This document shows positions 12,372-44,252 of a DNA stretch of 64,000 nt, in pieces; position 1 is the first letter of the stretch; each line of letters starts with the position of its first letter. The stretch is from Bispira polyomma. Lineage: Eukaryota. The position numbers were made by a program, and so were the translations under genes. The notes below the pieces were generated by a model. That model had not been told where the DNA came from, did not search any database, and was given only the letters and a program-made list of their open reading frames with translations. Location of the stretch: assembly GCA_965649765.1 (NCBI GenBank), contig OZ287755.1, positions 40,176,001 to 40,240,000 of the forward strand. Reading direction: 5' to 3'.

Positions 12372-13947
12372 GTAAAAATTCAGAATTAAACAAGATTAAA
12401 AAGATTAGTCATGAGCAAGATAACATCATAGTTATTAAAGATTTACTGTTCATGCGTGTTACCAGAAATACTAAATTAAAACAACAGTTTCCGTAATGTA
12501 TTTATACATACAATTATATCTGTGCTTACCTATAGTTTCTATTATTCCTGTTTTAATTTTTATTGTACTTAATTGTTTTGTAATCTGAGGTGGAATAAAT
12601 AAAAAAAAATATACAAAAATAAAAAGAGGGTGTAAATTAAACATGGAGGGGTTACATCAAAATCAAGTTTAAGTTAGCCCTGGAGATCATGCCATTCTTA
12701 AGTAGACGAAAAAGCTCCAACTTAGGTCTAAGGTACATGTCATTCAAATTCCTTGACTGCGGAAGAAAATACTTTGTCTGGCTATGACACTTCAGCAGCT
12801 TCTCTCTTCCAGAACCCTTTCCTCTACTTCCCCTTTGCTTACAGCCTGTGAGCCACCCAACTTTGCAGTAGTAGATACACATGTTGATTCTGCCATCGCA
12901 TTAGTTTGATCACACAAAAAGTATCCCCCCAAAATGTCTCAGTTTGTATACTTTTAAAAAACTTTTGCCATCAACAACAATGTATCTCTCTTCCAAATAT
13001 TAGGGCCCATGGACTTTGAGGATCTTTAGCTGTCTGGAGTTACCTCCACAAAACATCTCAGGCTGCTGCCACTGTTTCACTCGCTTATTTTTCTTTCCCA
13101 CCCCTAAGTTTTAGTTTTACCTTGGATATTTTAAAATCTCTAAAATTTTACCTTCTACAACTTGTAACCTTCACACATGGATCGAGATTTGACCCAGAAA
13201 TGATATTTTGACAACATACATCAGTTGAATATCTATACCATGTCTTGATTAATATTTCCCCCATACTGGGAAAAACTAATGCATGATAAGTTTGCTAGAA
13301 ATGAATGCAGCTTGTTTAAGGCCCATGCTGGTAAATTTTGGTCTGAAATTCTTGCCCGTATGGCACCTGTTTCAAACAATTTTGTATTAAGGAATTCCGG
13401 ACAATGACAAAGTTTATAGACAATAATTTTATACCTGTGAAAGGAGGCTGCAGTACTGACAGACAAGCAATTGCCAATTTCATTAAGTTTACCATATAGA
13501 CCATATTGCGGGGCACCACCCCAGTGGTGGTATGATCAGTTCTAGGGGACCAGTCTAACCTCACTCACGGTTCATTGCATAGTACTATAAAAGCCCCAGC
13601 ATTTCCAGTATTCTACCTTTTCAAATTCAGCTGCTGGACTGACAATATAAAACAGATACTAACAGAGGTCACCAGAAAAGGGAGGCAGAAACCACAAGGG
13701 ATTTGTTGTTTACATTTTTCTTTTATAACTTTAGTACACTGGTTTTTAACATTGATTGTCTCATTTATAATTATATTTATTGTAACGGATGTAGTTGGTG
13801 GAGCATTTGTCTGAACACTGGTTTTAACATTGACTGTCTCAGTGGAGCATTTGTCTGATCAATTCCTATAACCAAAGAGACGCTAGTCTATTAAATAGTT
13901 CATTGTTCTCAGTTTCACTGTGTTAACAAATTTATTGTACCCGTAAA

Positions 13948-14809
13948 ATGCCTAAAGTTAAAGTATATGGCTGTAGCAAGTGTTGCACAAAGCACACTTG
14001 TCCGGTTGGCAGTAGATCTCAGGTTGTAATACCTGAAGATTCGGGTACAGATAGTGAGACAGTTGAGGATAGTTCGATTGGTGTTGACAGCTTAGCCGTG
14101 GTCTCGAGACAAATATTGTTACAGCTCCAGTCAATGGGCAAAATGATGGAGCGACTGGATAAGCGAGTGTCAGTCACAGAAACAGCTCTGGCTCTAGTGA
14201 AAATTCAGCAAGCTTGAATAAGGAAAGCTATGAAAATAATGCCAAAACTGTTGTACCAAGCATTCAGTTCTTGAAACAAAATTCCTCTATTCAAAGTCAG
14301 GTCGAGGCATAATTAGCAGAGCTGAAACATCTCAATGAGAACCCTTGCTAAGGGTAAGCTCAAATCACAGAGAGGTGGGGGTCTGATGTGTCTGAAGCGT
14401 GTCGTTGAATGGCCCCAAAACCATGTGCTTTCGGGAAATTTTAAGGCTAGGCCGTGTTACGATGATTTGACCATGGGGCAGTGGTTTTGTGGATTTATGT
14501 GCATAATTCAGGATAAAAAATCCTCTGAAACGAAAGAGATTATGCTCGATTATATGGCAGGACTCATGGAGGACTCTCAGGATTTTTCTTGGGAGGCCGA
14601 TAAGGCCTGCCATGCATTTGTACTTACGACCATGGAAATGGACAAACTGAAATGGAGCGATGTTGACAAGCTCGATCATCTTAGGCAGGCCTATGCTCAG
14701 AAACATGTTTCTGACAGTAACGGGTAACATGTTTTTTTAAACATGTATGTAAGACTTGTAATGGGGCTCATAAGAGTAGTAGCTGTAGCAAAAAGCCAGC
14801 AAAAACTAA
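13948..14809 (+). pseudogene. DIRS #1 gag-like ORF, disrupted
   Basis: ORFs 13948-14217 and 14335-14727 align with gag of element #2. Confidence 0.8.
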
Positions 14810-15462
14810 GGGGCCACTGCAGAAATGCAGTGTTGATATTAAAGTAATCAGGTTGATATTAAAGTAATCAGTTCTATGGCACTGATTTTCGGGATTTCCA
14901 TCTGCTCAACAAACCCAGTAGTGCTAACTTATGTAAATAAAACAGTAGTGGTAACAACTATAGCTACAGTGGGGTACTGCGAGATAATCAAATCAAAATA
15001 AAACCAATGCACATTGAGGTGCAGTGTGTAGTCAAAATAAAAGCGGAAATAGTGCACAACCACTTGTCAAGGCTAACAGAGCCAAAGCCACAAGTAGCCT
15101 TCTCACTGTTCCCTACAAGCTGACCTTGCATGGTACTACCCAGCACAAACGCAATACTAGTGTTGGGGGGAAAAGAACTGTACAGAGCAAGGCTGGTGTC
15201 ACAATTGGGAAGGGTGCCAAGAAGTGTAAGTACACAGAGGCTAAAGTCATAGACAATTCTTAAGGGGTGGCTGTAAAGAATAGGTTTCAAATACTACAAG
15301 AAATAGACAAAATTGGAAATGACAAAGAACCAATTGTGGGTTCTGTTGTAGGCAATCTCATAGCTAAAGCTAGTCGGGCCCAAACAATAGGAACCATAAA
15401 GATGGTTAAGGCGCTCAGAAATTGGTCACACTAGTAGTGGTATTGCAATTGAAAGTGCAAGT

Positions 15463-17141
15463 ATGGATAAATATGCTTTGGAACTTAAGCAAAAAGTAAA
15501 TAAGAGGGATCTTTTGGACAAGGCTAAAACTTGTGATACACACTGTGCTTGGCGGGAACAACATAAGGTGGGCTACAGCTTCACCCTATTGATGGATTTA
15601 GGCTGTCGAGTAAGCGACAGTGGTTCCACTAATTATAGTCCCGACATCTTAAAAATGCACAAGTTACTGCGTAAAGATGGTAGGCAAAACTTTAGAGGTT
15701 TGCATATTCCGGTAAGTTAACAGCTGAACTCTGACAAATGGGCTCAATATCTAACAAAATACTGGGACTGGCAACTCCCGCTATTGATCAAATATGGGTT
15801 TTCTCTTGATGTAAGACATGGAAATATCGATCAATCAGATGAAACCAACCATAAGTCGGCCAACGACTTTCCACAGCATGTGGACACATATCTTGCTGAG
15901 GAATGTAAGTTTAGTGCAATATTAGGCCTGTTTCAAAATCCTCCAATTAATAACATACATTTCTCTCCTATGATGACTCGAGCCAAGTCTAGTTGTGGTG
16001 ACAGAAAGGGTCATTTAAGATCTCAGCTGGCCTATTGACCAGTCTGTAAATGCAGGGGTGTTTGCCACTGAATATCTCGGTACTGAGTTTTTATTGTCCT
16101 ATCCTATTTTATTGTCGCGCATTTAGGCATGTGCCTATTGACCCTAGAGATGTCGATTTACTTGGTCTGAAGTCCTGGGTCCTATTTTCTGGACAGATCA
16201 CTCCAGTTTGGATACCAGAATTTCAGACACGGTCAAATACATAATGGCTCAAGAGGGTTTCCATATGCACGCTTATATTGTTGATTATCTATGTGTGGCG
16301 CTCCCTAGTAACATTGAGAAAATATATAACAGACTACAGGGTCTGTTGGCAGAATTGGGCCTGACTGTGAGTGCCAAGACACTTATACCATCTAGTACTG
16401 AGGTGGTCTGCCTGGGTATTTTGATAAATACTGAAACAAATTAAGACATTGTGCGAACAATGAAAAGGAAAAAATGTCTTCACAAACAGGGAACTACAGT
16501 CACTGCTTGGTTCCCTATTGTATGTATCAAAATATATTATGTACTCTTTTGTGTACCTGTAGCACATGTTGCAACTTCTTAGAGACAACTATAGTAAGAA
16601 GAAATTTCGTTCACAACTGAGTTTAGAAGAGATTTAAAATGGTTTACCACTTTTATGCAGTAGTTTAATGGTGTCAGTTTCTTTGCTCACAAACCAATAA
16701 CAGGGCCCAGGTTGAGCTGGATGCTTGCCTTAAGGGTATGGGAGGCATATATGCCGACCAGGTTTATAAACTTAACATCCCTATTGAAATGACCAACGAT
16801 AACATATCCTCCTTGAAAATGCTGAATATTTTGGTGGCCCTCAGAATCTGGGCCCATGTTTGGCATGGCAAATGGGTGCTGTTTAAATGTTGTTACTTAC
16901 TAGTGGTCGCACATAGGATCCTGTTTTGGCTACTTATTCTAGGAACATCTACATGGTAGCAAGCCAACATGATATTGACATTAAAGAAATTTATATTTTA
17001 GGAGTAAAGAATAAAGTCGCAGATTTGCTCTCTAGATGGGACAAAACCATGAAAAATTTTAAACTGCCGCATGAATAGGTGGGACCTGTCACATGGATTC
17101 CTACCCATGTAGGCCTCCTAAGAGTTGATACCAGTATATAG
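15463..17141 (+). pseudogene. DIRS #1 reverse transcriptase / RNase H, disrupted
   Basis: NHKSA, FSPMMTRAK, AFRHVPID, VVCLGILIN, DAC and NKVADLLSRW motifs spread across frames. Confidence 0.85.
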
Positions 17142-17177
17142 TGTATGTATAGCATATGTTGTGGTTTGTGTATATAG

Positions 17178-17936
17178 GTGAAAACCCTGTAAGACCCCTG
17201 CTGACCAAGTGGGCCTGTGGCAGGTTGCATACTGCTTTTGCTGCCTCTACCTGCAACCGTATAACAGCATGTTTAGTCTCTTCCTGGCCTTCACTATATT
17301 CATGAATTGTGTCTCCTGCTCAGATTTCCAACCACTTGTCAGCCATTAAGGCTAAGTTTACCATGTTTCACATGTCAATTGAGGTCTTTTCAGACCCCCG
17401 AATAACCTTTAACAACAAAGCACTTCTAGCGAACCAGCCTTTTAAGGCTAAATTAAAAAGTCTATTTGATATTCCCATTTTATTAGATTAAGATCATAAG
17501 TGTGAGTGTACCTACATAGGACAGATTTTCAAGGCAGTTTATCTAACCAGCTTCTTTAGTTTCCTTTGTCTTTCTAACTTATATTGGTCACTGTCATTAA
17601 AACAGCTTTAGCCCTTGCCCCCCCCCCCCCGGCCCAAATGCCCCTCTGTTTCAGTACAAGCTTAACTCCACCTGGGTCCCTCTGACCGACTCACGTGTAC
17701 ATCACCATTGTAAAAATTTCCTTTAGTTATTAAACTGAGAAGATTCAAACTTGACATTTCACGCTTTCCGACGTTCAGGTGCCACCTTTGTTTTAAATAA
17801 TAACGCCCGTCTTCAGGACATTCAGCATCACGGCACCTGGACGTCGGACTGCGTTTGGTGCTATATTGCAGATTTGGCGGAGGTAGGTACTCAGGTGGCT
17901 GACTCCTTTCAGGCGGCCTTACAACCTAAACACTAG
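17178..17936 (+). pseudogene. DIRS #1 tyrosine recombinase, internally deleted
   Basis: N-terminal A..RL..AF..ST; catalytic HxxR (HAFR), W (GTW) and Y at the C-terminus. Confidence 0.85.
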
Positions 17937-18619
17937 TTTGGTGTTTGGTGGTTTAGGACACTCCGTGTCCCCTGTTTAGAATTTCAAATGTCTATAAAAC
18001 TAAATAGTCAGAAATTGTACCTAAATCTTGAGCTGACTTGGTGTATCTTGAAACTTAAGTATTTTAAAGAAGGAACTTCTAAAGAGAGACTATTCTATTA
18101 TTTTGTTGTTATATTGAGAAACACTATATTTTACAACTTATGATTATTGTACTGGTCATCTGTACATTAACTTCAACTTTATAAGGATGTTCAAAGCAAA
18201 TATTCTATTGATTGGTCTGGTCTAACTGAACTGTTTTCACCAATGAATCAATAATATTTAACTGTGTGTAAAAGCAATGATAATACACATATGTCACTGA
18301 AAAGCCTTCAGTTTGTGTAACTTTCTGAACATTCCTTATCAAAACTTTCGCAGGTTAATAATTAATATCAGCACTCACTACTTTAAAATTTTTAATTTGT
18401 ACATAGCTAACCCCTTGGGCGATTTGGCGGGAATAGCCAATGGCAATTAGAGTCATTCTGACCAGAATAGTTTTTTAAAAGTCCCTATCTAGCACTGACC
18501 CTACTAGCCCATTCGGGCTACCTTGCCAACATTTATCCAGGACCAATTAAAAATATTGCGATAGTGTTTGGTGGTGCAATGTTTGTTATTTGCTGACCTA
18601 AAAGCTTCTATCCTCAATA

Positions 18620-19950
18620 GCCATGACAATAAACTCAACAGCCGTGGTAGTAAGATCACTATTCATGGTAGTAGGATCAAATAGCCATGGTAGTAAGCTT
18701 AACAGCCGTGGTAGTAAGCTCACTATCCATGCTAGTAAGTTCAATAGCCATGGTAGTAAGTTGCATAACCATGGTTGTAAGATCAATAGCCATGGTAGTA
18801 AACTCAATAGCTGTTGTAGTAAGCTCAATTGATATGGTAGTAAGCTCAATAGCCATAGTAGTAAGCTCGATACCTGTGGTAGTAAGCTCAATAGCCGTGG
18901 TAGTAAGCTCAATAGCCATAGTAGTAATCTCACTACTGGTGTTTTTTTGCGAATACTACCAACACTACTGGGGTTTTCCCACCAATATTACCAAAATAAA
19001 GTTAATGTTTTATGGTCAAAGCCAAAATATTGAGTTTTAGACTGACAACCTTACTAAAAATATCACCCCACTAACACTGACAAAAAACATTACTACTGTG
19101 GTGCTGTTACTTTTCATAAAAAAGTACAAAATACGGTAAATTTACAAGATGTTTTGGGTAAGGTATAAAATATATCAGTGTGATGTAACTTTATCTTTAA
19201 ACCATTTACTTACTTTTGCCTCTGACTGAAATGGTAGATAAAACAAAGTAACCAGTTAGATATGCTGTCCTAATGCTTTCATCCTAAAATATGTATTCTA
19301 TGTTTGTAATCTTGTGATTTACTGCTCCCCAATTCTCTTGAATACTACGACCTATAAAGATATATATTGCTATGGACTAATGATAAATTATGTCTGAAAT
19401 TATTATTATTATTAATGATGGTAAACTAAATAACCATGATAATAAGCTCAATAGCCATGATTATAAGCTCAATAGCCGTGGTAGTAATTTCAATAGCTAT
19501 GATGGTAAGCTCACTAACCATGATAATAAGCTCAATAGCAATGATTATAACCTCAATTATGTATTGCAGTGAAAAACTACAATTTTTTCATGTTTAGTGT
19601 AAATCTTGTTTGAATAAATAAACAACAACAAATAACTTTATACAAGCAGCTGATAACAATGAGAGTTAGAAATTAATTCGATAATAGCATAATCGCCATT
19701 TAAATTATTTCTTATATCTATGTATTCCACTTAATATCCATTAAAATTATAATTAAAATCAATGATTTAAATCAATTGATTTAAATCAAACAACACTGTA
19801 CCTATGATGGTAAGCTCAATAACCATGATTATAAGCTCAATAGCAATGGCAGTAAGCTCAAAACCATGATTGTAACCTCAATAGCCATGGCTTTAGGCTG
19901 AATAGCCGTGGTAGTAAGCTGAATAATCATAGTTGTAAGCTAAATAGCCG
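18620..19950. repeat. 21-bp minisatellite (GTAGTAAGCTCAATAGCCATG), three interrupted blocks
   Basis: Blocks at ~18620-18925, 19415-19560 and 19803-19950; gives spurious periodic ORFs. Confidence 0.9.
19214..19282 (-). pseudogene. Orphan type A signal-peptide exon with in-frame stop
   Basis: MKALGQHI*LVTLFYLPFQSEAK|gtaagt; flanks homologous to ~25120-25535. Confidence 0.8.
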
Positions 19951-20135
19951 TATATGACATTGTTGTAAGCAAATAGCTGTATATGACATTGACTTTATGT
20001 ACACACATTTTAATAGTTATCATACAAAGGAACACAATATAGTAATGCATCATGTATTTCACCATTGATTGCAAATTTGAAATTACAATATCACATATCT
20101 GACGGTCAAATAATTTCATCCAAAAATTTTTTATT

Positions 20136-23100
20136 TTAAGTTGATAAACCTATCAAAAACCCATAAAATGTAGATTGGATGTCATTCATGTTTCCCGTTG
20201 CTTTAGCTACAGCGGTTCCAGTTAGGTGACTACTGCGCAGCCACACACGACTTCCGGCTGAGCACTCTATTATCAGAACATTGGTGCCTTGATCCCAGCC
20301 TTTTCCACTGGCTGTGGCTGTCGCGTATGCGTCATTGTTGATCATAATCTGAGGAACCACATGCTGTCAAGGCAATAATGCAAGAGAAAATATTATCATT
20401 ATTTGTTTATTTAACATACTCTATATAGAAAAAATGTTTACACATAAATATAATTCAGTTAATTTAGCAAATAAAAAAAGTAAATATATTACAAATTTAG
20501 TTTACAGAACTTTATAACATAAAGACAAAGGCAGTACATAAAGTATTATGATGTACACATATATTCCGGCATATACGTATTTTATCAAATGTTCTACCAC
20601 AATCTCTAGCATGTTTAGAAGTTTTTAACACCCTACATAGGACACTCAGTAGAGCCTAATCGCTCCACACTGGTCCCAGATTTTTTAGGTTATTACACAA
20701 TGTTTCTGTTAGTCTTTAAAAAATAATGAGGCTACAATACTAAATTTTTTACTGCAATATCATTCATCTATCACCTCCAAAATAAAGGTTTTACATAAAC
20801 TAAACCCCAGTATAGTTCCCCACCTCCCTAAAAGTGTCTTTGTCAACAGATCACACAACCAGCTATGACATTTTGCCCTGATTATTCTGATTGCTAAGGT
20901 TGCCCTCTAGTTATTATGGCTTTAAGACATCAAGGAGGTGGGGGGGGGGGGGGGGGGTCCCAAAAGTTCTTATTAAAACTGAAGTAAACTCAGACATACT
21001 CGCTAGTGTGACAACAGTCATATATGAAAGTTGGACTAAATGTTTGCTATGAACTATCCTAGTTTGTGCAACTTGGGGCAATCCTAGTTATTATTCTTGA
21101 AAACAACAAAAACAGAATATACAGCCCACTGAGGTCCAAGAGTGTGGATCACTGAAGTAAGTTTTACTATGATACATACATGCACATTATACACAGGTAC
21201 CCAAAAGAGATCAATATCAGAGTGACCATAAGGACAAAACTCTAAAGAAATGAAGAAAAATTTATGACTGGAAATGATTCAGCTTATTTCTAAAAGGTTA
21301 TAATCTACTGACAGTTCTAATGTAATGTAATGCAGAATATTTAACAGAGTACAGTCCCCATCACAGGAAAAATCACTGTCGTATTGAGCTTTGGACCTAT
21401 GAGTTTAGGACCAATGTGTTTAGGGTTCATGTGTTGTGATCTACAGATATTTATTGCTAGGATCAGCATGTCTACTATTTGACAAACAAGATGTACAAGA
21501 AATACTGTAATAAATCCCACATTTTGAGCTATGCTTGATTCCTTTTCTTGACAAATGAAAAGAACTGCCCTTACATTACATGATATATGTCCATGTATTT
21601 GATGTGTTACTTGAATGACATATAGACCCTATATCTTCACCTATTAAACTTGGAGTACCAACACAAAATACATTTTTTGTGAAAAAGGTATATCTTTATC
21701 TAAGCTATTTTTCTGCATAAACGCACATTGTTCTAGGTTCATAGAAAACAACTGGAAATACAGCTTTAATAATGTGTAAAATCTGGTGTATATCAGTTGT
21801 ATAACTAATCCTAATTTATTGTGTAAATTTAATGCAATAAATAGGTTAGAAAATGTGTGATAAACCAATATAAAGATTATTCACCATTGTGAAATGGCTA
21901 TATCATGTGTCATTTTATAACGTTTTATTGCAGCAAATACAATATGTTGGCTTTTAACTTTTCACTATTTTTATGAACAAAGAACTCTGGGATGATTTGG
22001 AATGCATTTTTAATCAGCCAAGGAAAAAAATGTTACCCCAGGGCTGTGTTTTGCCTTACATATCATTTCTAAGATGGTGGGCCTTTTTCAAAAAGAAAAC
22101 ATGTACAATATTGGTTGTTGTAAAAAAGCTTGACAAGGTGACTCTCACAGTATATTCGTAATTTAAACATAGTTTGGGTATAGAGCATAATATATTCACA
22201 TATTTGAAAAGAGTGATGTATAATATTGTATGGTCTAACAGTGAAATATGTCACACTCTGTTTTGATGTTCAATGTGACATATTTGTAATGGTAACCTGG
22301 TTGGAAGCAATTGATCCGAGTATATAGTGGCCATATCAACGTTTCACACTGTGCACCTGTGTCTTTTTTTTAAAAGGACAGCTCTTGTTTGATTAAGCGG
22401 AAAAAAATGTTTTCTTTTTATTGCCATGCTGGAGAGTCACAACTTCGACTGGGACACTGTAATCTGGTTAACATGCTGTTTTTTAACATGCCATGTGCCC
22501 ATGTGTCTGCCAATCAAAATGGAGGATTTGTATGCAATGATGTTTTAATGCCACCTACATTATTATCATAAGTCATCATAGACACGCCGAAGAAGTAGAG
22601 TCCAGTACAGGGCAGGTAAACTCCCCGGAACTGGTTGAGTAATGGTCACCATAGTTTGTCAGTACAGAGTTAAACACAATTGGGTCACCCTCAGGACACA
22701 ACAAGTCACTACCTGGGTAGGCGGTAAAGGCCACATATTGTTTCTGCACTGCAAATATATGTGATTAAAGGTCTCTAGATAGAGAAAATGTGTATAGTTT
22801 TGCATCTGTGTACAGTCTTGTACTTGAGTATGTTAGTATCTAGGCCTTGATCAGAACATAACAACAGACCACATCTACAATTGACAACAGACTATTTGCA
22901 TATAATATATATTTCCTGCAAACATTTAACAATAACACAAAACAACAACCACCTTTGCTGTTTCACATGTGAGTTTGATAAAGGAAAGCAGTGCATATAT
23001 ATTAAGTGTCCATTACTAAACAAAGTTTCCTATTCATGGTTTCCTGTGGTTGAGTGGTTAGGGAGTTGGTCTGGTGATCAAAAGGTCCCCAGTTCAACTC

Positions 23101-25452
23101 CTAGTGGGGATTTCGGTTGGTCTGATGATCATAAGGTGCTCGATTCGACAACTGCTATACTGCTAGGTTAAATGCTGGGCAAGATGTGAACATAATGACT
23201 GAGGCTATGTTATAGGCCACATGATTGGTTGATTGATTCAGTTGGTGAGCTTTAAAAGATGGCTCGCATCAATAAAGTGTGTTAAAATATAAACTACAAT
23301 ACAATATTCTACAATTGTCATCAGTCTTTTGGTTCTAAGAATGCTAATAAGTGTAATTTTTCATTTATACCTGAAACTCTATGCTCATATGCTGGTCCAT
23401 CCCAGGTGAGATTGTCAGCCTAAACATTTAAACTCTAACCAATGAGAATAAAACTGGTGCAAACTATTTTGTTTATAACCAATTATATTATCCAAATATG
23501 AAAATCATTTACATAATATTTAAAACAAATGTGATCACAAGTTATGGCTGGTTGCATTAAGCTGGAGGTTAAATTAAACCAAAGTGAGAACTTGATTTAC
23601 AGTGAAGCTTATTAAATATACATGTAAGTCTTTATAAAATATTACATAAAATCTACATTCACTTTGTAGTTAAATATGTATACAGTATATCACTGAAATA
23701 CTCATCACTGTCACTATGAAACATCATTAGTTCATACACATTTCATATTTTTCCCTGAAAAGTGAAGATTTTTTAAATGTTTATTCTATAGCACAGCCTT
23801 ATAACTGTAATACAGTACATATTGTAGTATTGATAAATAGCAACTAACCAAGAGCTTTTAAAGTTGTGATTTCTTGATGATACTTCTCATCCAGTTTAGT
23901 CAAGAGTTTTTCCAGGATTTCATACTTCTCATTTAGTTCGATCAACTGACTTTCTACTTCCTCTGTTGTCTAAGTAGGGATATAATACAGCAGAAGTTTT
24001 ATTATTCAAAGTTCTGTTATCCGAATATTTGATTCTATGAGCACAAATTTCCCCCAAAATTGCTTTATACATAGTATATACTCAGTACAGTATTTTGTAA
24101 GTGTGAATTTATTTGGGTTTGTACATCCATTTCAACAGCTCAGGGCACATGACGATGGCCAGATTTAATTGTGAAAGAAACTAGTGCTGAATGACTGTAA
24201 ATAACCAAACCAACCCGGCAAGTACTTTACAAACTTTCCCACACGAAGGAACAAGAAGTATTCAAACCCTCATTGGTGAGAGGCCAGGGATTGTGAAGCA
24301 GGCACTTCTAACAACAAGGCCATGGGAACCGACCCTGGGCATTGGGACTCAAAATGCCACTTGGCCTGATTTTGTGCCACTGATAGGCACCACTAACTGG
24401 CATGTCCATAACTGAAGAAAGAGTAGCATAAGGATAACTGCTACTTTGCCTGTTTTTGTGACTGCCATCGACCGGCACCACTAATTGGCATGCCCATAAC
24501 TAAAGAAAGAGTAGCATAACGATAACCATTTCATTCTTCGTCCCCAAGGTTTTTCATGGGGACAGGATCCAATGACAGAGATCTGCCATGTGGAAGGGTC
24601 ATCTGTGGCACTATTTATCTGCTTATATCTTAGAGCCCCATGTTGTGTTCAAACCGAGGATCTCTGTAGCCCACAGTGGGTGTGTTTCCATCTAGTGACA
24701 TGACCATCTTAGAGCCGCATGTTGTGTTCAAACCGAGGGTCTCTGTAGCCCACAGTGGGTATGTTTCCATCTAGTGACATGACTTTTTTATTTTTTACAA
24801 AGCTTGTACTTGTGACATTTTAGCACAAACATTTATTGACATATTCACTTGCACACGTTGCCTGGTCATGAATTCTTAATATTCACATATTTGTATTAAT
24901 TTTCTAAATATTATATTACTTTAGGTTGTTACAATAGCTACCCATGCTAATGCTTAATTAATCTTATGATATTTTTTTAACAAATTTTGGAAATTTGTGT
25001 AAATTTTGAAGGCGCAGGGGCAATATTTTGAGTTTTAACAAATGAGATTTGTTCAAATTCTGGTTTCTCTTCCAAAATGTTTAAGTTGAGTATTATTTGG
25101 CACTTATTATAGTTTTTCACCAACACTAATGGGTTTTCTTCCCGCCAACACTACCAATATTTAAGTCAATGTACTGTGGTCAAAACCAAAATATTGAGTT
25201 TCAAACTGACAACAGTACTAAAAATATAACCCCACTAACACTGACAATAATAAAACATTATTACTCTGGTACTAATACTTTTTCGTAAAAAAGTACACGA
25301 TGCAGTCTATTTTTCAAGACCTTTTGTGTAAGGTATAAAAAAAATCAGAGTGATGTAGCTTTATCTTTAAACCATTTACTTACTTTTGCCTCTGTCGCAA
25401 ATGGTAGAAAAAACAAAGTAACCAGTAAAATGTGCTGTTGTAATGCTTTCAT
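20136..25452 (-). pseudogene. C1qDC type A copy A2; exons 25452-25384, 23969-23849, 22748-22559, 20363-20136; one 1-nt deletion in exon 3
   Basis: MKALQQHILLVTLFFLPFATEAK / coiled coil / VQKQYVAFTAY...FTCPV(fs)GLYFF / HVVPQ...FYGFLIGLST*. All introns GT-AG, phases 0,1,0. Exon 3 is 190 nt versus 191 in intact copies. Confidence 0.85.
24104..24330 (-). mobile_element. tRNA-derived SINE family 2 (equivalent copy at ~59540-59765)
   Basis: Reverse complement resembles 26091-26348 (CTTCACAATC.CTGG.CTCTCAC, GTGGGAAAG, GGA.GT..AA..CCAAAT). Confidence 0.7.
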
Positions 25453-26090
25453 CCTGAAATATTGTATTCTATGATTGTGATCTTGTGATTGACTGCTCTC
25501 CAATTCTCGTGAATACTACGACCTGTAAAGATATGTGCAGTACAAAGAAATTAATGTTACCTATGTGATAAGACATATTGTTGCTGTGTAGAGGAGTAAC
25601 ATTAACTATCGATAAAGCCAGTAGCATTGAATTTTATATGTACAGCAGTGTAAGTGTATAAATTATGATATGTACAAAGGAATGAATGTTATCTATGTGA
25701 AAAGACATGTGGTGGTTGCTGTGTTAGGTGTAACATTTCCATTGATAAAGCAAACAGCGCTGAATTTTAGTTGTACATCAGTGATGGTAAAATATATCAT
25801 ACCTTTTGACAAGATGTCAGTTTGATATTTATCACAAGGGTGATATATGTGACAGGAAACAATTTTTTTTAAAACTATAATATCACTCTCTATTATCCGA
25901 TGTGCATACAGTGTACACTTTAATGTGGTATCCTTAACAAAGAAACATTTTCCTTTAAGAAAACAAACTGAGATCAATTGCATAAGTTTAGAAAATTGAT
26001 GAATAATATCACCTGTAAAACATTATGCAAGTATCTGTATAACATAAATAATTTTATCAGTCAAATAATACATTTAAATGGCACAATGTT

Positions 26091-26348
26091 TGGGGCCGCG
26101 GTGGCCTAGTGGTTAGCATGCATTGCGCTTCACAATCACTGGTCTCTCACTTCTGGGCAGCGTGAGTTCAAATCCCGTCGATGCCTATGTGGGAAAGGTG
26201 GTACTTCCTTACTGTGGGCCGCTGGTTTCAGTGCAGAACCTTGACCGACTGTATGCAGTGTTTCCTCCAGCGTTTCCAACTACCTGTCCCAATATAACCT
26301 ACTAAAAGGTACTAGAGTGGACGTTAAATATCCAAATTCAAATTCAAG
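26091..26348 (+). mobile_element. tRNA-derived SINE family 2, full length
   Basis: A box TGGCCTAGTGG, B box GAGTTCAAATCCC, GTTTCCTCC motif, (TCAAAT)n tail, ATGTT on both flanks; absent at the equivalent site near 10230. Confidence 0.85.
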
Positions 26349-27096
26349 TATGTTGGAGAAGGCCATCGCTCTGTCTAACCATGATCTTAACCACACAGAA
26401 TTCTATTTGTTATTGCTTCTGGAAGGCTACTTCATTTAGGTGGCCCAACTTCAATTTCATTAGTTCACATCATTGGTGTTTTTGAAGGGACAACATTCCG
26501 GAGCTAACTAATTGTTCAAGTATTAACATTGAAGACAAAAATGTATTGTCATTTAAACAAAATTATCGTGTGAGCTGATACAGACATGCTTTTTTATTTA
26601 AGGAGTTTTTATAGATATCTTATATACTTTTGAATGTTTACTTGTTGCTTATTAATCTGCAGAAGTTTTAAGAAGATGTCATTGAATTTTTCTCATCAAC
26701 TTACACTTGGTTTGCTCACTTTGAGGGCTGTATCTATTTCTAGTGATCCTGCTGTCATCTATGTCAAACAAACAAATGAGCTAAATAGTTTAAGTGTTGT
26801 ATTATGTTTTTAGTACAAACATTGAATTTTCTATTGTACTTTTCAACAATGTTAAGCATTCATAATACTTTTTTGATAATGTTAAAGTTGGTACTTCCAT
26901 ATTGGTGTATGTTTGGTGGGGGACATACTTTCGGTATTTCGGTATTTAATTTAATATCATGACTCTGTGACCTACGGTTATGAATAATAAATAGCAGAGA
27001 AAAAAATGGCCATATTATTACTTTTATTGGCTTTCTTACATTTTTCTTTCCATGTAAATATGATCAAATGACCAGATTTACAGCCCAATGCAGCTG

Positions 27097-27330
27097 TTAT
27101 GCTGAAGTAGATAAAGCTATTAAAAATCCATAGAAGGAACTCTGAACATCAGTCATATCCTCAGCAGCATGAGCCACCAAATACCCGGAATTCAAACTAC
27201 TGAGCAGCCACACTTCACTTCCTTCTGTACACTCAGTTATAAAAGTATTAGTACCATGGTTCAAACCATTTGAACCTGCTGTTGCTGATGTATATCCATC
27301 ATTATTAATCATAATTTGTGGGGCAACATA
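27097..27330 (-). CDS. B2 exon 4 (C1q C-half)
   Basis: ttttag acceptor; ends FYGFLIALSTSA-TAA. Confidence 0.92.
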   Translation of the reverse strand, partial: YVAPQIMINNDGYTSATAGSNGLNHGTNTFITECTEGSEVWLLSSLNSGYLVAHAAEDMTDVQSSFYGFLIALSTSA

Positions 27331-28440
27331 CTAAAATAAATTAATTAACATAAGAGTAAATATATGTACCTGAAATATGCATAGTGAACAATATAGCCAA
27401 TGACCTTAATGACACAAACGTAATAACATTAAACCCTTTGCATCAGCAACTAAATCACCAGTTCAAGAATTTGTGATCATAAAAATAATAAGAATATGAT
27501 TCAAGAATACTATCTTCTGTAAAAAAACTGCCCTTGGGCGTTGTATATTTCTAAAAAAGGGGTTATAATTAAAAAAAAATTCTGTGGCTTTGTAACATGT
27601 TGTTGGAAAGTCATAGTAATATGTATACAACATTTGAACTATCCACAAATATCTGGTCTCTGAACCAAGGGTGAATAAAATTTACATGTTGACCTACATT
27701 ATCATACAATTATCTAAAACAATCTAATAATAAAAACTGCCTGAAGGACAGATGTAGCTATTATCCATATTATTTTAATGTAGTAACTTCTAAAATATTG
27801 GCATTTGGTTATCTAAAAATTTCTTAAAAAAGGGAGAGAGGCTATAGCTAGAGAGGGGGCTTTAATTACATAAATATAGTTTAGTGTAGTTTTAAGATTT
27901 TAAACATTTTACCCACATTATTAGGTAAAGTCATCAAAGACACTCCGAAGAAGTAGAGTCCAGTTACAGGGCAAGTAAACATTCCAGAACTGGTGTCGTA
28001 ATGTCCGCCATAGTTTGCAAACACTGAATTAAACACGATTTTCTGTCCCTCTGGACATTCCATATCTGCTCTGGGATAGGCTGTGAATCCCACATATTGC
28101 TTTTGTACTGCAAATATATCACCTAACATCAAACATTTATCTATTTAATGCATAGAACCAAGACTTACATTCTAACATAACCGAAAACTTCTCAATTTTA
28201 AGTGTAAATTTTTTTGTGTAGTCATATTAAACATGAGATAAGACACTTCTAGTCATCCTAGTCATGCTTTGTTACATAAAATATTGCACCGTGCTTTAGC
28301 CTAAGTGCAATGCATTATTTTATAATATTGCACTCTTACATTGTAGATTATTGTGACATGAAAACAGTTTTAAATCAATGTATAACAACACCAAGTACAA
28401 ATCTTATTTGAGTATTTTTTTTACTGTAAATTAAAGGTGA

Positions 28441-28480
<40 letters not shown>

Positions 28481-31400
28481 CACAAAAGAAACCCTGGAAC
28501 AATAGTCATTCAGTATCTCAAAATATTTAACTATGAGTAAATCTAACAGTAGAAATCAACAGTTACATATATATGTTACAGGCAACCTGTGTAATCAGGA
28601 ATTTTGCAAAATCCCTGGAAATTTCAGTCATTTCGCAAAATCCCTGATTCACTTAGGCAATTCCCAAACTGCCACAAAGTATCAACTTTTTTCTCATTAC
28701 TTGTCAGACATACAGAATTCATACACTTTTAAGTTGATTGTACATCATAGGCTAATATAATTGGTAAACACTTTGTAGTGACTCAAGGTCATGTGTATGT
28801 ACCACAAATGCAATGAAGCACTAATCTTTTTAAGCATTTGCTCTAAGTTGATCGTACATCATGGGCTTTATAGCATGAAGAAAATATAATGGATAAACAC
28901 TTTGAAGTGACTTTTGGGATAAATACTGACCACAGATGAAATCAATCACTTATTTTTTTAAGCAGTGGCCTCCTGTAAGTTCATCCCTGAGTAAGTATTT
29001 GTTTTTATTATCAAAACATCTTGGTACCTTTTAATGTTTGCCAAGACAAGAATTTTAAACCAGCAGCCACCTAAAGAGTGATTAAAGTCTGAGTAAGAAA
29101 TGATGCGAGATCCTTGGTAGGAAGTGTATTACATTGATAATTGCAATCAGATTCATTTCCTGGTAGGAGGGTTTATAAAATCTAAACAGATTGGTAATCC
29201 TTCACTTTTTACTTTTCATATATATTAAACTGCTGTATTTACTTGTGGAAATGGCTAATTTCTCTCGTGGTGTCTAGGCTACACGGGTGTCAGTCCTGCC
29301 CCACCCTTAAAATTTGACTTAAGTTACCAGGCTAAATTGTACAGGTAAACTGCTTATGACATCACACGAGTTTCCCCTTGTTGTCAGAGGTTCAAATGTT
29401 TACACTCATTTTTCATTGGCTTAGAGCTTGGGCTAACCCAAAGGGTCTTATTAATCAGTCAGTTTAAAATTTGAAACTGAAAGGCACAGACGTGCTAGAA
29501 CTTTTATGTGGAAACTGAATATTTTTATGAACTGTCTTCTCGTTTTTAGTTTGTTTTTAGTTGTTGTTTTTATATTAAAGTGATCTGCAACGAACGAACA
29601 CTAACTGGAAGGAGTTTGGATGAAATTATCAGTGAATTGTGCTAGATACGGCTGATCTGACAACCTCATGCTTGCTTGGCTCGAAAGGGCAACAAAATTA
29701 TAAATACTGGCTTCTCTATTTCTGTATAACAAATTTTTGGTGTCAAGCGTGTGATTGTCAAACCAGGCCCAGAGGTATGTGCTATCTTTTCAGAGTTTCA
29801 GTATTAACTGTGACTATTAAAAATGCCAAAGTGTAGTAAAACGCTGTGCAAAAAGTGTGTGACCAGACATTTCCCACCCACGGGTAAAAAATGTCAATTG
29901 GAATTAGAATTGGACGTGACTTCACAGGTGGACGAAGTACTAATGCAGAAGAAGGATTCTCACCAGAGGCTGAAGTGGCTGAAGAAGACGAGGGAGACAT
30001 GCAGAGGCAGATCCTGAAGGAGCTTCGAAAGGTCAACTCCAGGCTGGATGTGGTGGAGGAACGGGTGGCGGAAACACAGAAGGGACGACAGAGAGTACGG
30101 GATAATTCAAAGTTAAGTAGTGATTCAAATAAACGTTACAGTAAGAGTATAAAACGCAGTTCAAGAAACAAACATATGGAAAGTGACAGTGATACGTTTT
30201 CTCATAAACAGTGCAGTAAACATAAGAGAACAGTCAGTAGAACAGTTTCAAGTGATAGTGATACATCTTCTGATGATTCAGTAGTACCTACTATGTCAGT
30301 ATTGAAATCCTCCCAGGATATACAGAGGGAAGTAGACAGCAGGTTGAGAGAACTAGAATGTGAAGGGGCGTGTAATTCAGGTAAACATTTGACCTCCAAA
30401 ATTAAGTCGAAAAGGGGGGGGGGGGGGGGGTAATGTAGATATCATTGTCAAGAATAGAGTGGCTTGGCCACATGAGTGTATCCTGGGGGGTACCAGTAGA
30501 CAAAGAGTGGTATATGATCAGTTGTCGCTCACACAGTGGGTACAGGGCTTTTGTAAAAATATTATAGAAGAGCGTGATAGCTCAACCAAGGATAAAATGG
30601 TGCAGTATATATCAGAATTGATGGAAGATGCTACAGACTTTTCGTGGCAGGGGGCGAAGGCGGCTCATGCGTTTGTCTTATGCGAAATGGAGAGAGGTAC
30701 TGTAACATGGCAGAACACATCTCGTATTGACAGAATACACAGGGCCCATGTGCAAAAACATATCCCAGGTTTGGGCAAATCCAGTTAGGGTAAAAATACT
30801 GAAAATACCAGAAAACCTTGGTATTGTAAAAATTATCAAAATGGTAGCTGCTCTCACAGCAAAGATCACAAAATGGGGGACAAATGCAAAAACACATTTG
30901 TTCTACTTGTTTGGAAAGGGGAAGAGAATTGAATCACCCAGAAAAAGATTGTAACTTTGCCAAAAAGAAAACCTTTTCAAAAAACGAGCTAGCTGCTCAA
31001 CTTTAGAGCAAGGTGAGGGCAGCAAAATATCAGCTCATGATAATAAATGTTCTACAAAAGTAAATATTAAAACAGAAGCTGGTTGCAGCAAGGCTGCAGT
31101 ATCTGTCAATGTTGGTAAAGGTAAAGTTTCAGTGGAAAAGGTGTCTGAAAAAGTGGTAAATATATTCAGGACCAGACTTGTTTATAACAGTCGTGTCAAT
31201 GTGAGAGAAACCCAAGCTATGTTAGCACATAAAGGTAAACAAAGTCGACAAATGTGACAGAACGACCAAGTACACAAAACAAAGTACTGACAAAGACTTT
31301 CTTCCCAACAAAAGACTCGACCCAAAGTAAGCACGACAATAGACATTGTGTAACAAAGGGTGACGTCAACAATAAAAATGCTAAAGGGGGCTCACACAAA

Positions 31401-34400
31401 GGGGTAACTCTAGTTCTCCCAGAGCAATAGACACTAAAGTTAGTGGTGAGGTGTCACTTCACAATGGTGACATTGAAGTTACAAACACAGGCAGACTAAT
31501 TGAACAGAATGACGTGAGCGATAGTGACAGGCAATTAGCTGACACAGGTGAAACAATCAATGGTGACACGGGAATGAAGCAGTTGGTATATGATGTAAAC
31601 AAATACAACTCTGATGATAAGTTCATCAATTCAATCCTTGGTAGAACAAAGAATCGGGACTTGGACAATAAGGCATTGACCAAGGTGTTCACTTTCATGA
31701 CTTGGCAAAAACAATCAGAATTTGACTTTGGGTTTATCCCTCTATCGGACAGAATAGAAAAAGGGGGGTGCTCGGGTGAATGCCCTAATAAGGTGGTCAA
31801 TCCTTTCCAGCAACATGCAGTGATAAAAAGTACTGGGGATTACAACTTTAAGGTCGCCCGTATACCAATTGCTTCACAACTAAACGTTAACAACTGGAAA
31901 AAATACTTGCAAAACTATTGGGATCAGCAGTTAGTAGAACTGATTGAGTTTGGATTTCCCCTTGACTTTAATAGGCGATGTCCTCTGAGATGGGAAGGGG
32001 AGAACCATAAGTCGGCTACAGATTACCCAAAAGACATAGAAGTATACTTGAAAGAAAAAGGTACATTTGGGGCAATCTTGGGTCCATTTAATAAACATCC
32101 CATTGAAGGTGGTCACTTCTCCCCCTTTATGAGTAGGGAAAAGCCAAATTCAGATAACAGAAGTCATTATTGACTTAAGTTGGCCTCCTGAGGCGTCGGT
32201 GAATGCAGGAGTGGATAAGAACCAATACTTGGGTGTTGATTTCAATTTAACATTTCCAACGGTCGATCACATAACTGCTGAACTCAATAAACTCGGTAGA
32301 GGTGCATTGATTTATAAAATAGACGTGAGTCGTGCGTTTAGACACGTGAAAATAGACCCCCATGACTATGACTTGCTAGGTCTCCAGTGGAAAGGCACTT
32401 ATGTAGACACGTGTCTCCCATTTGGGAGTAGACACGGGAGTCAAATTTTTCAGAGACTAAGTGACGCGGTGCGTTACATTATGTGTAACCATGGTTACAG
32501 CGTAATAAACTACATTGACGATTTTATCGGATATGGTACGCCCTCTGTAGTTCAAAAATTGTATGACTGTCTAACCAAAACCTTAGAGGACCTAGGTTTG
32601 ACCATCAGTGCATAAAAGCTCATCACCCCTGCGACGCAAGTGGTATGTTTGCGTGTCCTTATTGACACCACAAAAGGTACAATTGCTATACCCCAAGAGA
32701 AATTGCTAACAATACAAGACACAGTCAAAAAATGGCTAACAAAAACCATGTGCACAAAGCGTCAACTGCAGTCTGTACTTGGATTTCTGCTGTATGTTCA
32801 CAAGTGTGTAAAACCAGCTAGGATATTTCTTAATAGAATGCTAGAACTCCTCAGGTGCTCATATAGCAAAAGTACTATAAAAATAACCAATGACTTTCAC
32901 AGAGACTTAAAGTGGTTCAGTAAGTTTCTCCCAGAATATAATGGGATTTCCATGTATGACTATAGGGCTGTGGACTATGTGTTAGAGCTGGACGCGTGTT
33001 TGACTGGACTTGGAGGTGTTTGGAAGAACTGGGTATATCATTTAGAGGTTCCTAGAGGTTACATGAATTTGACCATTGTGCACCTAGAAATGGTGAATGT
33101 GTTGCTGGCTGCTAGGTTGTTCCAGAAAGCATGGGCTGGCAGAAAGGGTGATAACCAGGCAGTGGTGTGGGCTTTACAACTGGGCAAAGCAAAAGATCCC
33201 TTTTTGGCAGCTTGTGCCAGGAATATTTGGTACACGGCTGCAGTAGCAGACATTGAATTCCAATTTGTCCATATACTGGGAAAATGAAATAGAACCGCTG
33301 ATTTGCTGTCAAGATGGCAGAATACCATTGAAAATAATCAGGAACTCTGTAATCTTGTTAATAGCCCTGTTTGGTTGAACACATCAGTGGAAATGTTAGA
33401 GCTAGATAGCGAATTGTGATCACATAATAATGATATGATGCTATACTTTGTTACAGGACACAGGCTCCTGGGGAAGCTGGGGTCACAGGCCAATTCTAGA
33501 CTTACAGAGGCTTTCAGGCCCAAGACGCAGACGACATACAGACAACAGTTTAGGACATTTGTGGCATTTTGTGTGTATGTTAAAGTTCAATTGCATCAAG
33601 TGTCTGTGACATGTGTCATGTCCTTTCTAGAATTTCTAATGTTTAATAATGTTTCTAGTCACATGATGGCCAACTATATCTCTGCAATCAAAGCGAATTT
33701 TAACACTTAAAAGATGGTTTTAGTTAAGGTCACCTTAGGGTGTACGTAAAGTAAATTAAGGTCACCAGATGTTGGTGACCAGTGTTCAGCATAAAAGTAA
33801 ATGTAACTGAATGTTTTGTGTACTCTGTATAATCGTGTTTTATCTGTGAATATATTGTAGTAGTAGTTCATGTACATATTAATAAATCAGTATCCGCATA
33901 TGAATCTTTTCACTTTGACTTGGTGGGGTAGGGACTGATGATAATGGCCTTAAATACAGAAATGAATTATTCCAAAGGGTTGCAAAGTGTGAAAAGTATC
34001 TGCTTGTACATTTCAGATCCAGATCCAGACATCTTTACATACTCAACAAATATGAGGTTCTTCAGTGTGGAGACATTTAGAAACTGATTAAGAAACGTTC
34101 ATCCCCAGAGGATCCTCTCATATACTATGTCTGCATTGAAGAGACATATGAAATATTGTTCATTTTTCAATCACTGTTTGTAATTACTACAAATTTTGGC
34201 AATTTGCGTATGCCTAAGCCTAAAAACCAGTCATTTTGCGAAATCCATGGAAATTTTAGTCATTTCTCGAATTGCCTAAATGAATCAGGGATTTCGCGAA
34301 ATGACTGAAATTTCCAGGGATTTTGCAAAATCCCTGATTACACAGTTTGCTTGTAACATATACATTTCACAATAATTATCGTAATCATTGACTTTGCAAA

Positions 34401-43220: not shown

Positions 43221-43384
43221 ACAAGTAGTGGAAATCAGTGGATTTGTGGATTAACAATGTGTTTGTAACTTCTTTCTCTTTTTATCTTTATCTATATTGA
43301 CAATTTTCTAATGTGTAAGGATATCAAGAAATTTTCTACTGCACATAGACTTTGAAATGCAAAGGTTCACAAAGTGTCACCATA

Positions 43385-44000
43385 ATATACAGCTGTGGTA
43401 GTAAGATCACTAGCATGGTAGTAGGATCAAATAGCCATGGTATTATGCTTAACAGCCGTGGCAGTAAGCTCACTGTACATGCTAGTAAGTTTAATATGCA
43501 TGGTAGTAAGTTCAATAACCATGGTGGTAAGATCAATGGCCGTGGTTGTAAGCTCAATAGCCGTGGTAGTAAGCTCAATAGCCATGGTAGTAAGCTAAAT
43601 ATCCATTATAGTAAACTCAATAGCCATGATTGTAAGCTCAATAGCCATTGTAGCAAGCTCTATAGTCATGTCTTTTTAGCTAAATAGCATTTATGGTGAA
43701 CTTAATGACCATGATAATAAACTCAATAGCCATGATTATAAGCTCCATAGCCATGGTAGTAATCCCCATAGCTATGATTGTAAGGTCAATAGCCAAGACA
43801 GAAAGTTCAATAGCCATGACTGTAAGCTCAATAACCAGGATTCTAACCATGATTGTATAGCCATGGCAGTAAGCTCAATAGCCATGGCTTGCAGCTAAAT
43901 AGCCGTGGGAGTAAGCTGAATAACCATAGGTGTAAGCTAAATAGCCATGGTAGTAAGCTTAAAATCCATGATAGTAAGATCAATAGCCATGATAGTAAGT
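43385..44000. repeat. 21-bp minisatellite, same family as 18.6-19.9 kb
   Basis: GTAGTAAGCTCAATAGCCATG units; leading sequence matches ~18640. Confidence 0.9.
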
Positions 44001-44252
44001 TGCTTAGAATTTGCATTGAAAGAGTGATAGCCACAATACAAGAGGCAACTGCAACGTCTTACACTCATAAATAATGAAACTTGTACTGCAAACATTTGTA
44101 TATATATGACATTGAATTTATATACACACATGGTTATCATACAAAGGGACACAACATAGTAATGCATCATGTATTTAAATTTTTATTGCAGATTTCAAAT
44201 GACAATGTCACATATCTAACAATGAAATAATTTCATCCAAAAATATCTTATT

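Follow-up and report, generated by a model that had tools for sequence, protein, structure and literature searches.

A conserved candidate −1 frameshift signal at the gag/pol junction of Ngaro-type retrotransposons in the Bispira polyomma genome

How does a retrotransposon whose integrating enzyme is a tyrosine recombinase (YR) obtain its Pol protein when pol is out of frame with gag? The question is raised by a 64,000-nucleotide stretch of the 1.04-Gb genome of Bispira polyomma (contig OZ287755.1, positions 40,176,001 to 40,240,000; hereafter the window, in whose own numbering all positions are given), which contains two decayed elements of this kind, element 1 and element 2, both on the forward (+) strand, as are all of their features described below. 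An initial annotation of the window had proposed that in both elements pol is reached by −1 ribosomal frameshifting, at a slippery heptamer of the form X_XXY_YYZ followed by a stem. Comparison with relatives elsewhere in the genome indicates that the signal is real and conserved, and very likely functional in active elements. The mechanism that we favour, and regard as highly probable from the sequence comparisons, is a programmed −1 frameshift in which tandem slippage on A_AAA_AAC, stimulated by a hairpin, would give a minority Gag-Pol product.

Element 2 (29261–33937), recognised by blastn to a relative at locus L072 and by its RVT_1 match, is a decayed Ngaro-type YR retrotransposon holding a 5′ repeat A, gag, pol, a truncated YR and part of a repeat B. 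Its gag (29823–31006), traced by translation and family alignment, is broken by private indels and a stop, and ends in a Cys/His finger followed by KNELAAQL and the stop codon (31004–31006). The heptamer A_AAA_AAC lies near this end at 30979–30985, in X_XXY_YYZ phase and in frame with the zinc finger. A spacer of 6 nt (30986–30991) separates it from a stem-loop at 30992–31023, the predicted frameshift stimulator, in which the arms GCTGCTC (30992–30998) and GGGCAGC (31017–31023) form an outer 7-bp helix; the minimum free energy fold has an additional inner helix of 5 bp (−14.8 kcal/mol, z −2.8). Starting at the heptamer, 90 codons of the −1 frame (30985–31254) are free of stops; the first stop is at 31255, the first Met comes only at codon 79, and on the upstream side the frame is closed at 30952. 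The heptamer, the spacer, the outer stem and the open −1 frame agree with the initial annotation, including the exact length of that frame and its lack of an early ATG. The pol of element 2 (30985–33419), comprising a −1 frame linker, a reverse transcriptase (RT) and an RNase H, is broken in this copy and continuous in relatives; its Pfam RVT_1 match covers 32133–32612.

On its own, such a copy carries little weight. The window, counting both strands, has 952 X_XXY_YYZ heptamers, and in 11 of them a stem at −13 kcal/mol or lower follows 5–9 nt downstream, so single copies prove little and it is the family data that carry the claim. For A6C heptamers the figure is one in 35, that one being element 2; the heptamer of element 1 is non-canonical and was left out of this scoring. 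Both elements have accumulated many stops and indels. The two window copies are vestigial and can no longer make Gag-Pol or other element proteins.

Loci for the family comparison were drawn from the best 150 matches of each of two genome protein searches, out of thousands of candidates. With long gag frames preferred, the set retrieved comprised 94 long loci from the element-2 group and, from the element-1 group, 60. A copy was scorable if its final finger was in frame (74 of 94 and 37 of 60, with 20 and 23 dropped), and lineages were separated at <80% identity, giving 20 in the element-2 group and 9 in the element-1 group. The heptamer A_AAA_AAC, in the gag frame and 0–7 codons ahead of the gag stop, was present in 95 of the 111 scorable copies and in 25 of the 29 lineages, so that the family alignment suggested as a check of its conservation supports it. 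Within the element-2 group the exact heptamer is present in 66 of 74 copies (18 of 20 lineages), the others having AAAAAAT (four), AAAAAAA (two) or neither (two); in the element-1 group it is present in 29 of 37 copies (7 of 9 lineages). Copies without it, taking both groups together, have AAT or AAA endings, G-AAA-AAC, or indels in the A run. The heptamer C lies within a CpG in many lineages; a C-to-T change there (L138, L160, L162, L163) also creates a stop in the −1 frame and, as a result, is found only in dead copies.

This spelling is not what the protein sequence alone would lead one to expect. The product of gag codon frequencies gives an expectation of 0.085 per Lys-Asn (KN) site, and NNA-AAA-AAC is found at just one of 49 other KN dipeptides in gag. 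The residue preceding the lysine varies (S, A, P, T, E or L); its codon has A at the third position in all 20 lineage representatives, a set that had itself been picked for bearing the heptamer. At the protein level, KN falls within 25 residues behind the finger in 94 of the 100 outside Gag homologues that have a finger (120 matches listed, 20 of them fingerless), a set that may derive from only one or a few assemblies. A metagenome scan with the Gag alignment gave 284 pattern matches, none of which was confirmed, and the ESM Atlas gave matches only to unnamed clusters (0.90–0.91).

Downstream of the heptamer the RNA is predicted to fold. For a 45-nt segment starting 5 nt past the heptamer the median z was −3.9, and 15 of 20 lineage representatives fell below −2; when the segment was moved to 35 other offsets (−400 to +475), only 0–6 of the 20 did so. 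The folding check thus supports a structure 5–9 nt past the heptamer, where the stems begin, and their loops range from 4 to ∼18 nt, mostly 4–6 nt. Pairing survives in 86.7% of alignment cells in one clade and in 92% in the other (15 rows each), compared with 16–53% in slid controls. The stems of the two window copies had been said to differ in sequence, which is partly true, but a CUGC...GCAG-type core recurs in stems across the lineages. The GNRA tetraloop noted in element 1 was rejected as a family feature, as loops vary in sequence and length across the family. Nor did pseudoknot prediction find support: pairing of the loop to downstream sequence reached p <0.05 against shuffles in one of the 14 lineages scored, and loops of the element-1 type measure only 4–6 nt. 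In these models the stimulator looks like a plain stem-loop with modest covariation.

We then consider where the −1 frame leads. When the 95 copies with the heptamer are all counted, the sequence that follows it stays open for a median of 246 codons in the −1 frame, of one codon in frame 0 and of 10 codons in +1; at least 100 codons are open in 66, one and two copies, respectively. These unselected medians were used because a count of stop-free −1 frames was circular, the representatives having been picked for long −1 frames, and was set aside. Upstream, the −1 frame is closed at a median of 7 codons before the heptamer, which confines any shift to the heptamer surroundings. An unbroken frame extends from the heptamer to the RT YxDD motif in 24 copies, and in 16 through RNase H (816–864 codons). 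On the medians and these 24 copies, pol is in the −1 frame with respect to gag, one of the points on which the proposal had been open to refutation. In four examples the predicted Gag has 355–380 amino acids and the predicted Gag-Pol 1,194–1,222. In the single copies L170, L069, L230 and L179, gag and pol have been brought into one frame of ∼900–1,220 codons by a private indel close to the junction, which confirms the relation of the frames.

The first Met of the −1 frame lies anywhere from codon 14 to codon 299, with no conserved position. Peptides ahead of it align between several, though not all, lineages (z of 8–26 among L143, L144, L147, L149, L153 and L174, for example), with many other pairs at ∼0. 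Some outside Gag homologues extend past the junction, and these have the linker motif as it is read in the −1 frame here. This conserved motif, ∼30–130 codons past the heptamer, consists of Y-x-S/N...L-L-A-R and then, in many lineages, S/T-Y-A-x-V-V-K, in an otherwise fast-changing region of ∼300 amino acids ahead of RT.

From the motif, its frame relation, its conservation and the predicted folding, we infer the following course of translation. Most ribosomes would stop 0–7 codons past A_AAA_AAC and release Gag. A minority, likely paused at the hairpin 5–9 nt downstream, would slip back by one base together with the tRNA-Lys and tRNA-Asn, and would continue through linker, RT and RNase H to give a Gag-Pol of ∼1,200 amino acids.

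Several observations weigh against this reading. The loci excluded from the counts (20 of the 94 and 23 of the 60 fetched) were those whose finger was not in frame, and the choice of loci favoured long gag frames amongst the best 150 matches. A looser search for an A6 run plus stem recovered 20 of 20 and 13 of 23 of the excluded loci, one or two of these hits looking spurious. As the lineages are related, 25 of 29 does not represent 29 independent trials. The suggested check of stem covariation was borne out in part: although pairing is kept far above the slid controls, no more than 2 of 10 pairs in each clade show two-sided changes, and the covariation score was reached by 22 of 500 and 3 of 500 shuffles, most stem pairs being invariant. 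The sequence of the stem core is itself conserved and, read in the −1 frame, specifies a Cys in most lineages, so that protein constraint or shared descent may contribute to its preservation. Finally, in some lineages a Met is available at codon 14–20 of the −1 frame.

Such a Met would suit a pol translated from its own spliced or subgenomic messenger RNA (mRNA), using either an internal AUG or the donor within gag, with the overlap being incidental. The donor is indeed strong and conserved, and the element-2 group has an in-phase AG directly past the heptamer. This AG is, however, lacking from several lineages and from the element-1 group as a whole, and the 14 nt leading to the heptamer end average 33% pyrimidine, compared with mostly 57–71% for the YR acceptors. 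A separate mRNA would moreover leave the fixed codon choice of the heptamer and the hairpin unexplained, and in 10 of 19 representatives the first Met comes only at codon 96–299, behind a stop-free, partly conserved peptide; we consider this explanation very improbable. The same distant first Met would leave pol without a start if KN were simply the conserved end of the Gag protein and the hairpin a separate cis element serving packaging, termination or stability. A stem core kept in sequence, and not in pairing alone, fits such an element, but a protein motif would not fix three synonymous choices, and little credence can be given to the idea. Slippage could also occur at the level of RNA synthesis, with RNA polymerase adding an A on the A6 run and so fusing gag and pol. 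Genomic copies with an extra A do exist, including several with seven A's and L170, which has a fused frame of 898 amino acids, yet they are few and scattered, as replication errors would give. The run is held at six A's and a C, in ribosomal phase, with a hairpin at a ribosome-sized distance, and Pol II, to our knowledge, does not usually slip efficiently on A6, so that polymerase slippage, too, seems extremely unlikely.

Programmed −1 frameshifting would account for Gag and Pol, leaving the YR. The initial annotation predicted three proteins from one promoter on the basis of frameshift and splice sites, and this prediction gains support from conserved in-phase splice signals in the sequences. 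A phase-1 donor, G|GTA, stands just ahead of the conserved KSxRG motif in gag in 81 of the 84 copies where this motif could be identified; for other Gly codons the count is 157 of 896. The scoring accepted any Gly within 12 codons of the motif. In the window copies the predicted donor GT is at 14354–14355 (element 1) and 30381–30382 (element 2). At the other end, pol could be scored in 20 of the 28 elements tried. The pol stop coincides with the start of the YR or precedes it, and the YR is in frame 0 in four elements, +1 in six and +2 in 10; the lack of a fixed frame excludes any single fixed shift from pol to YR. A phase-1 YAG precedes the YR in each of the 20, mostly after a U-rich tract, and in seven no Met occurs until after the first conserved YR motif. 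The predicted acceptor AG is at 17176–17177 in element 1, following a pol stop at 17139–17141, and at 33455–33456 in element 2, where with the surviving 5′ part of the YR it covers 33455–33705.

These donor and acceptor signals probably reflect a spliced fusion, and we infer that the YR would be made from an mRNA in which the first half of gag is joined to it in phase 1. Against this, a phase-1 YAG within 30 codons easily arises by chance, and a Met is present upstream of the YR motif in 13 of the 20 elements, from which the YR may instead be made by re-initiation. Three runs of uncertain kind from one study, compared with one young copy, contained no splice-type joint and no indel rows, a result that weighs neither for nor against splicing. 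YR homologues have a stand-alone length of 255–368 amino acids (120 listed of 278 matches); they resemble plain open reading frame calls and so have no bearing on splicing.

Taken together, the scheme for the clade would be Gag, a −1 Gag-Pol via A_AAA_AAC and a simple hairpin, and a spliced Gag-N/YR, and we lean towards this retrovirus-like arrangement with some reserve. Retroviruses make Gag, a frameshifted Gag-Pol and a spliced env from one transcript unit; the predicted third product here is not an envelope but a fusion of the first half of Gag with the integrating enzyme. If the scheme is true, the Cys/His knuckle and coiled region at the N terminus of Gag would bring the recombinase into the particle, and the scheme would replace, in this clade, the published guess that the YR is reached by a frameshift from pol.

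The elements themselves had been called DIRS-like. This holds insofar as they are YR retrotransposons of the DIRS order, but they are of Ngaro type rather than DIRS1-like. Relatives of element 2 have gag, pol (RT and RNase H) and tyrosine recombinase in that order; in Pfam, RVT_1 is above the cut-off, and RNase H-like and Phage_integrase/SAM matches are below it, in the correct order. Gag has no Pfam match and is named from its position and Cys/His fingers, and no integrase or protease match was found in the element. In L072 the ORFs lie within split direct repeats, A1-ORFs-B1-A2-B2, with A of 256 nt at 97% identity and B of ∼430 nt at 96–99%; L195 and L197 likewise have split direct repeats, with 100% identity over the 212 nt of A and >99% over the 392 nt of B. 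The window copies retain only parts of these repeats. No terminal inverted repeat pair was found in L072, L195 or L197, where the repeats are direct and split. Pfam gave no methylase at E values up to 1 in any of three full pol proteins, and pol ends ∼35–40 codons past the last RNase H motif, leaving no room for one.

In the available parts of the literature, Ngaro elements are defined by split direct repeats and the absence of a methyltransferase (PMC3266345, PMC8547959, PMC7192593), whereas DIRS1-like elements have inverted terminal repeats, together with an internal complementary region, and both DIRS1-like and PAT-like elements carry a methyltransferase (PMC3266345, PMC7192593). By these definitions of repeats and domains both elements are Ngaro-type, the superfamily with which they share gag, RT/RNase H, YR, split direct repeats and the lack of a methyltransferase. 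The split direct repeats and missing methylase indicate Ngaro type, and together with the absence of an inverted pair they rule out a DIRS1-like identity, for all that DIRS1-like elements also have YR and RT/RNase H. PAT-like elements share YR, RT/RNase H and split direct repeats, and differ in having the methyltransferase that was not found here. The clade is very large in this genome, with 8,768 and 6,881 first-look candidates in the two Gag searches and at least 29 lineages, amongst which gag identity is 45–79%. Some lineages have near-identical copies and terminal repeats that are 99–100% identical, a sign of recent spread.

Frameshifting at a gag-pol junction is a known mechanism. According to the part of PMC5009743 that was available, −1 gag-pol frameshifting is common in animal long terminal repeat (LTR) elements, pol is in −1 in 28 of 51 animal retroelements cited there, and A_AAA_AAC ranks with the shiftiest heptamers on mammalian ribosomes; DIRS, Ngaro and tyrosine recombinase go unmentioned in the first 300,000 characters of that review (449,034 in all). 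The signal described here resembles those of animal LTR retrotransposons, retroviruses and PEG10 in having X_XXY_YYZ at the gag end, a 3′ structure and pol in −1. It differs from LTR and retroviral systems in accompanying a tyrosine recombinase, with no integrase or protease match, and from PEG10, whose stimulator is a pseudoknot, in what looks like a plain hairpin. As the mechanism is well known, the surprise is moderate.

For Ngaro elements, Poulter and Butler (2015), as quoted in PMC13003380, have the YR ORF overlapping RT/RH in the −1 frame and probably frameshifted. The overlap was not seen here, given the spread of YR frames reported above (0, +1 and +2 in 4, 6 and 10 elements), and where that account places the frameshift at the YR, our signal is at gag/pol and the YR is preceded by splice-acceptor-like sequence. 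From the portions available, Ngaro elements are usually without overlaps (PMC3266345) and the YR frame varies (PMC3783388), so a −1 overlap of the YR is not a strict family feature. Overlapping frames, with no frameshift mentioned in the portion available, are described for Xenopus Ngaro-like families (PMC9210276), and the corresponding portions of PMC3783388, PMC6681497, PMC2632668, PMC9341512 and PMC12517315 give no translation mechanism. Literature searches whose coverage excluded the founding papers, Repbase and supplements turned up no account of a slippery site or a splice for the DIRS order; an earlier mention of the gag/pol overlap in those papers (Goodwin and Poulter 2004, Poulter and Butler 2015) is quite possible. 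Translation of downstream genes in DIRS-order elements appears, from these partial sources, to be little studied, the record consisting of overlaps and one guess. What is described here is thus a known mechanism in an order for which the literature found holds only a guess, the splice prediction being more novel. It would extend −1 gag-pol frameshifting to a retroelement order with a different integrating enzyme. The cassette is short, exact, testable and conserved over lineages, offering ∼25 natural variants of one hairpin stimulator, and repeat annotation would do well to treat gag and pol as one protein and the YR as a second exon.

Element 1 (13503–18015) is an older decayed copy of a related clade, with gag, RT/RNase H and YR all broken. 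At 14800–14809 it has C AAA AAC TAA, a degenerate heptamer (canonical in most relatives) with the gag stop, followed after an 8-nt spacer by the hairpin CACTGCA-GAAA-TGCAGTG (14815–14832; z −2.4), which in relatives has a longer stem and a variable loop. Heptamer and hairpin are thus where the initial annotation placed them, but in this copy the heptamer and the zinc finger lie in different frames, and only 13 codons of the −1 frame are open before a stop. In the subfamily alignment, a six-A run followed by CTAA is seen in 11 of 20 other loci, two of which are tandem neighbours.

The window contains other repeats. Minisatellite arrays with a 21-nt unit form two related blocks 24 kb apart (18600–19950 and 43330–44030), and tandem arrays with units of 36 nt and ∼142 nt lie at 53986–54305 and 55046–55651. 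An interspersed repeat of ∼255 nt at 26091–26347, SINE-like by size, is 95% identical to copies adjoining the unrelated loci L072 and L206. Element 2 is flanked at a distance by a 117-nt inverted repeat pair (28562–28678 and 34254–34370, 87% identical), which lies beyond the element ends and probably represents host repeats.

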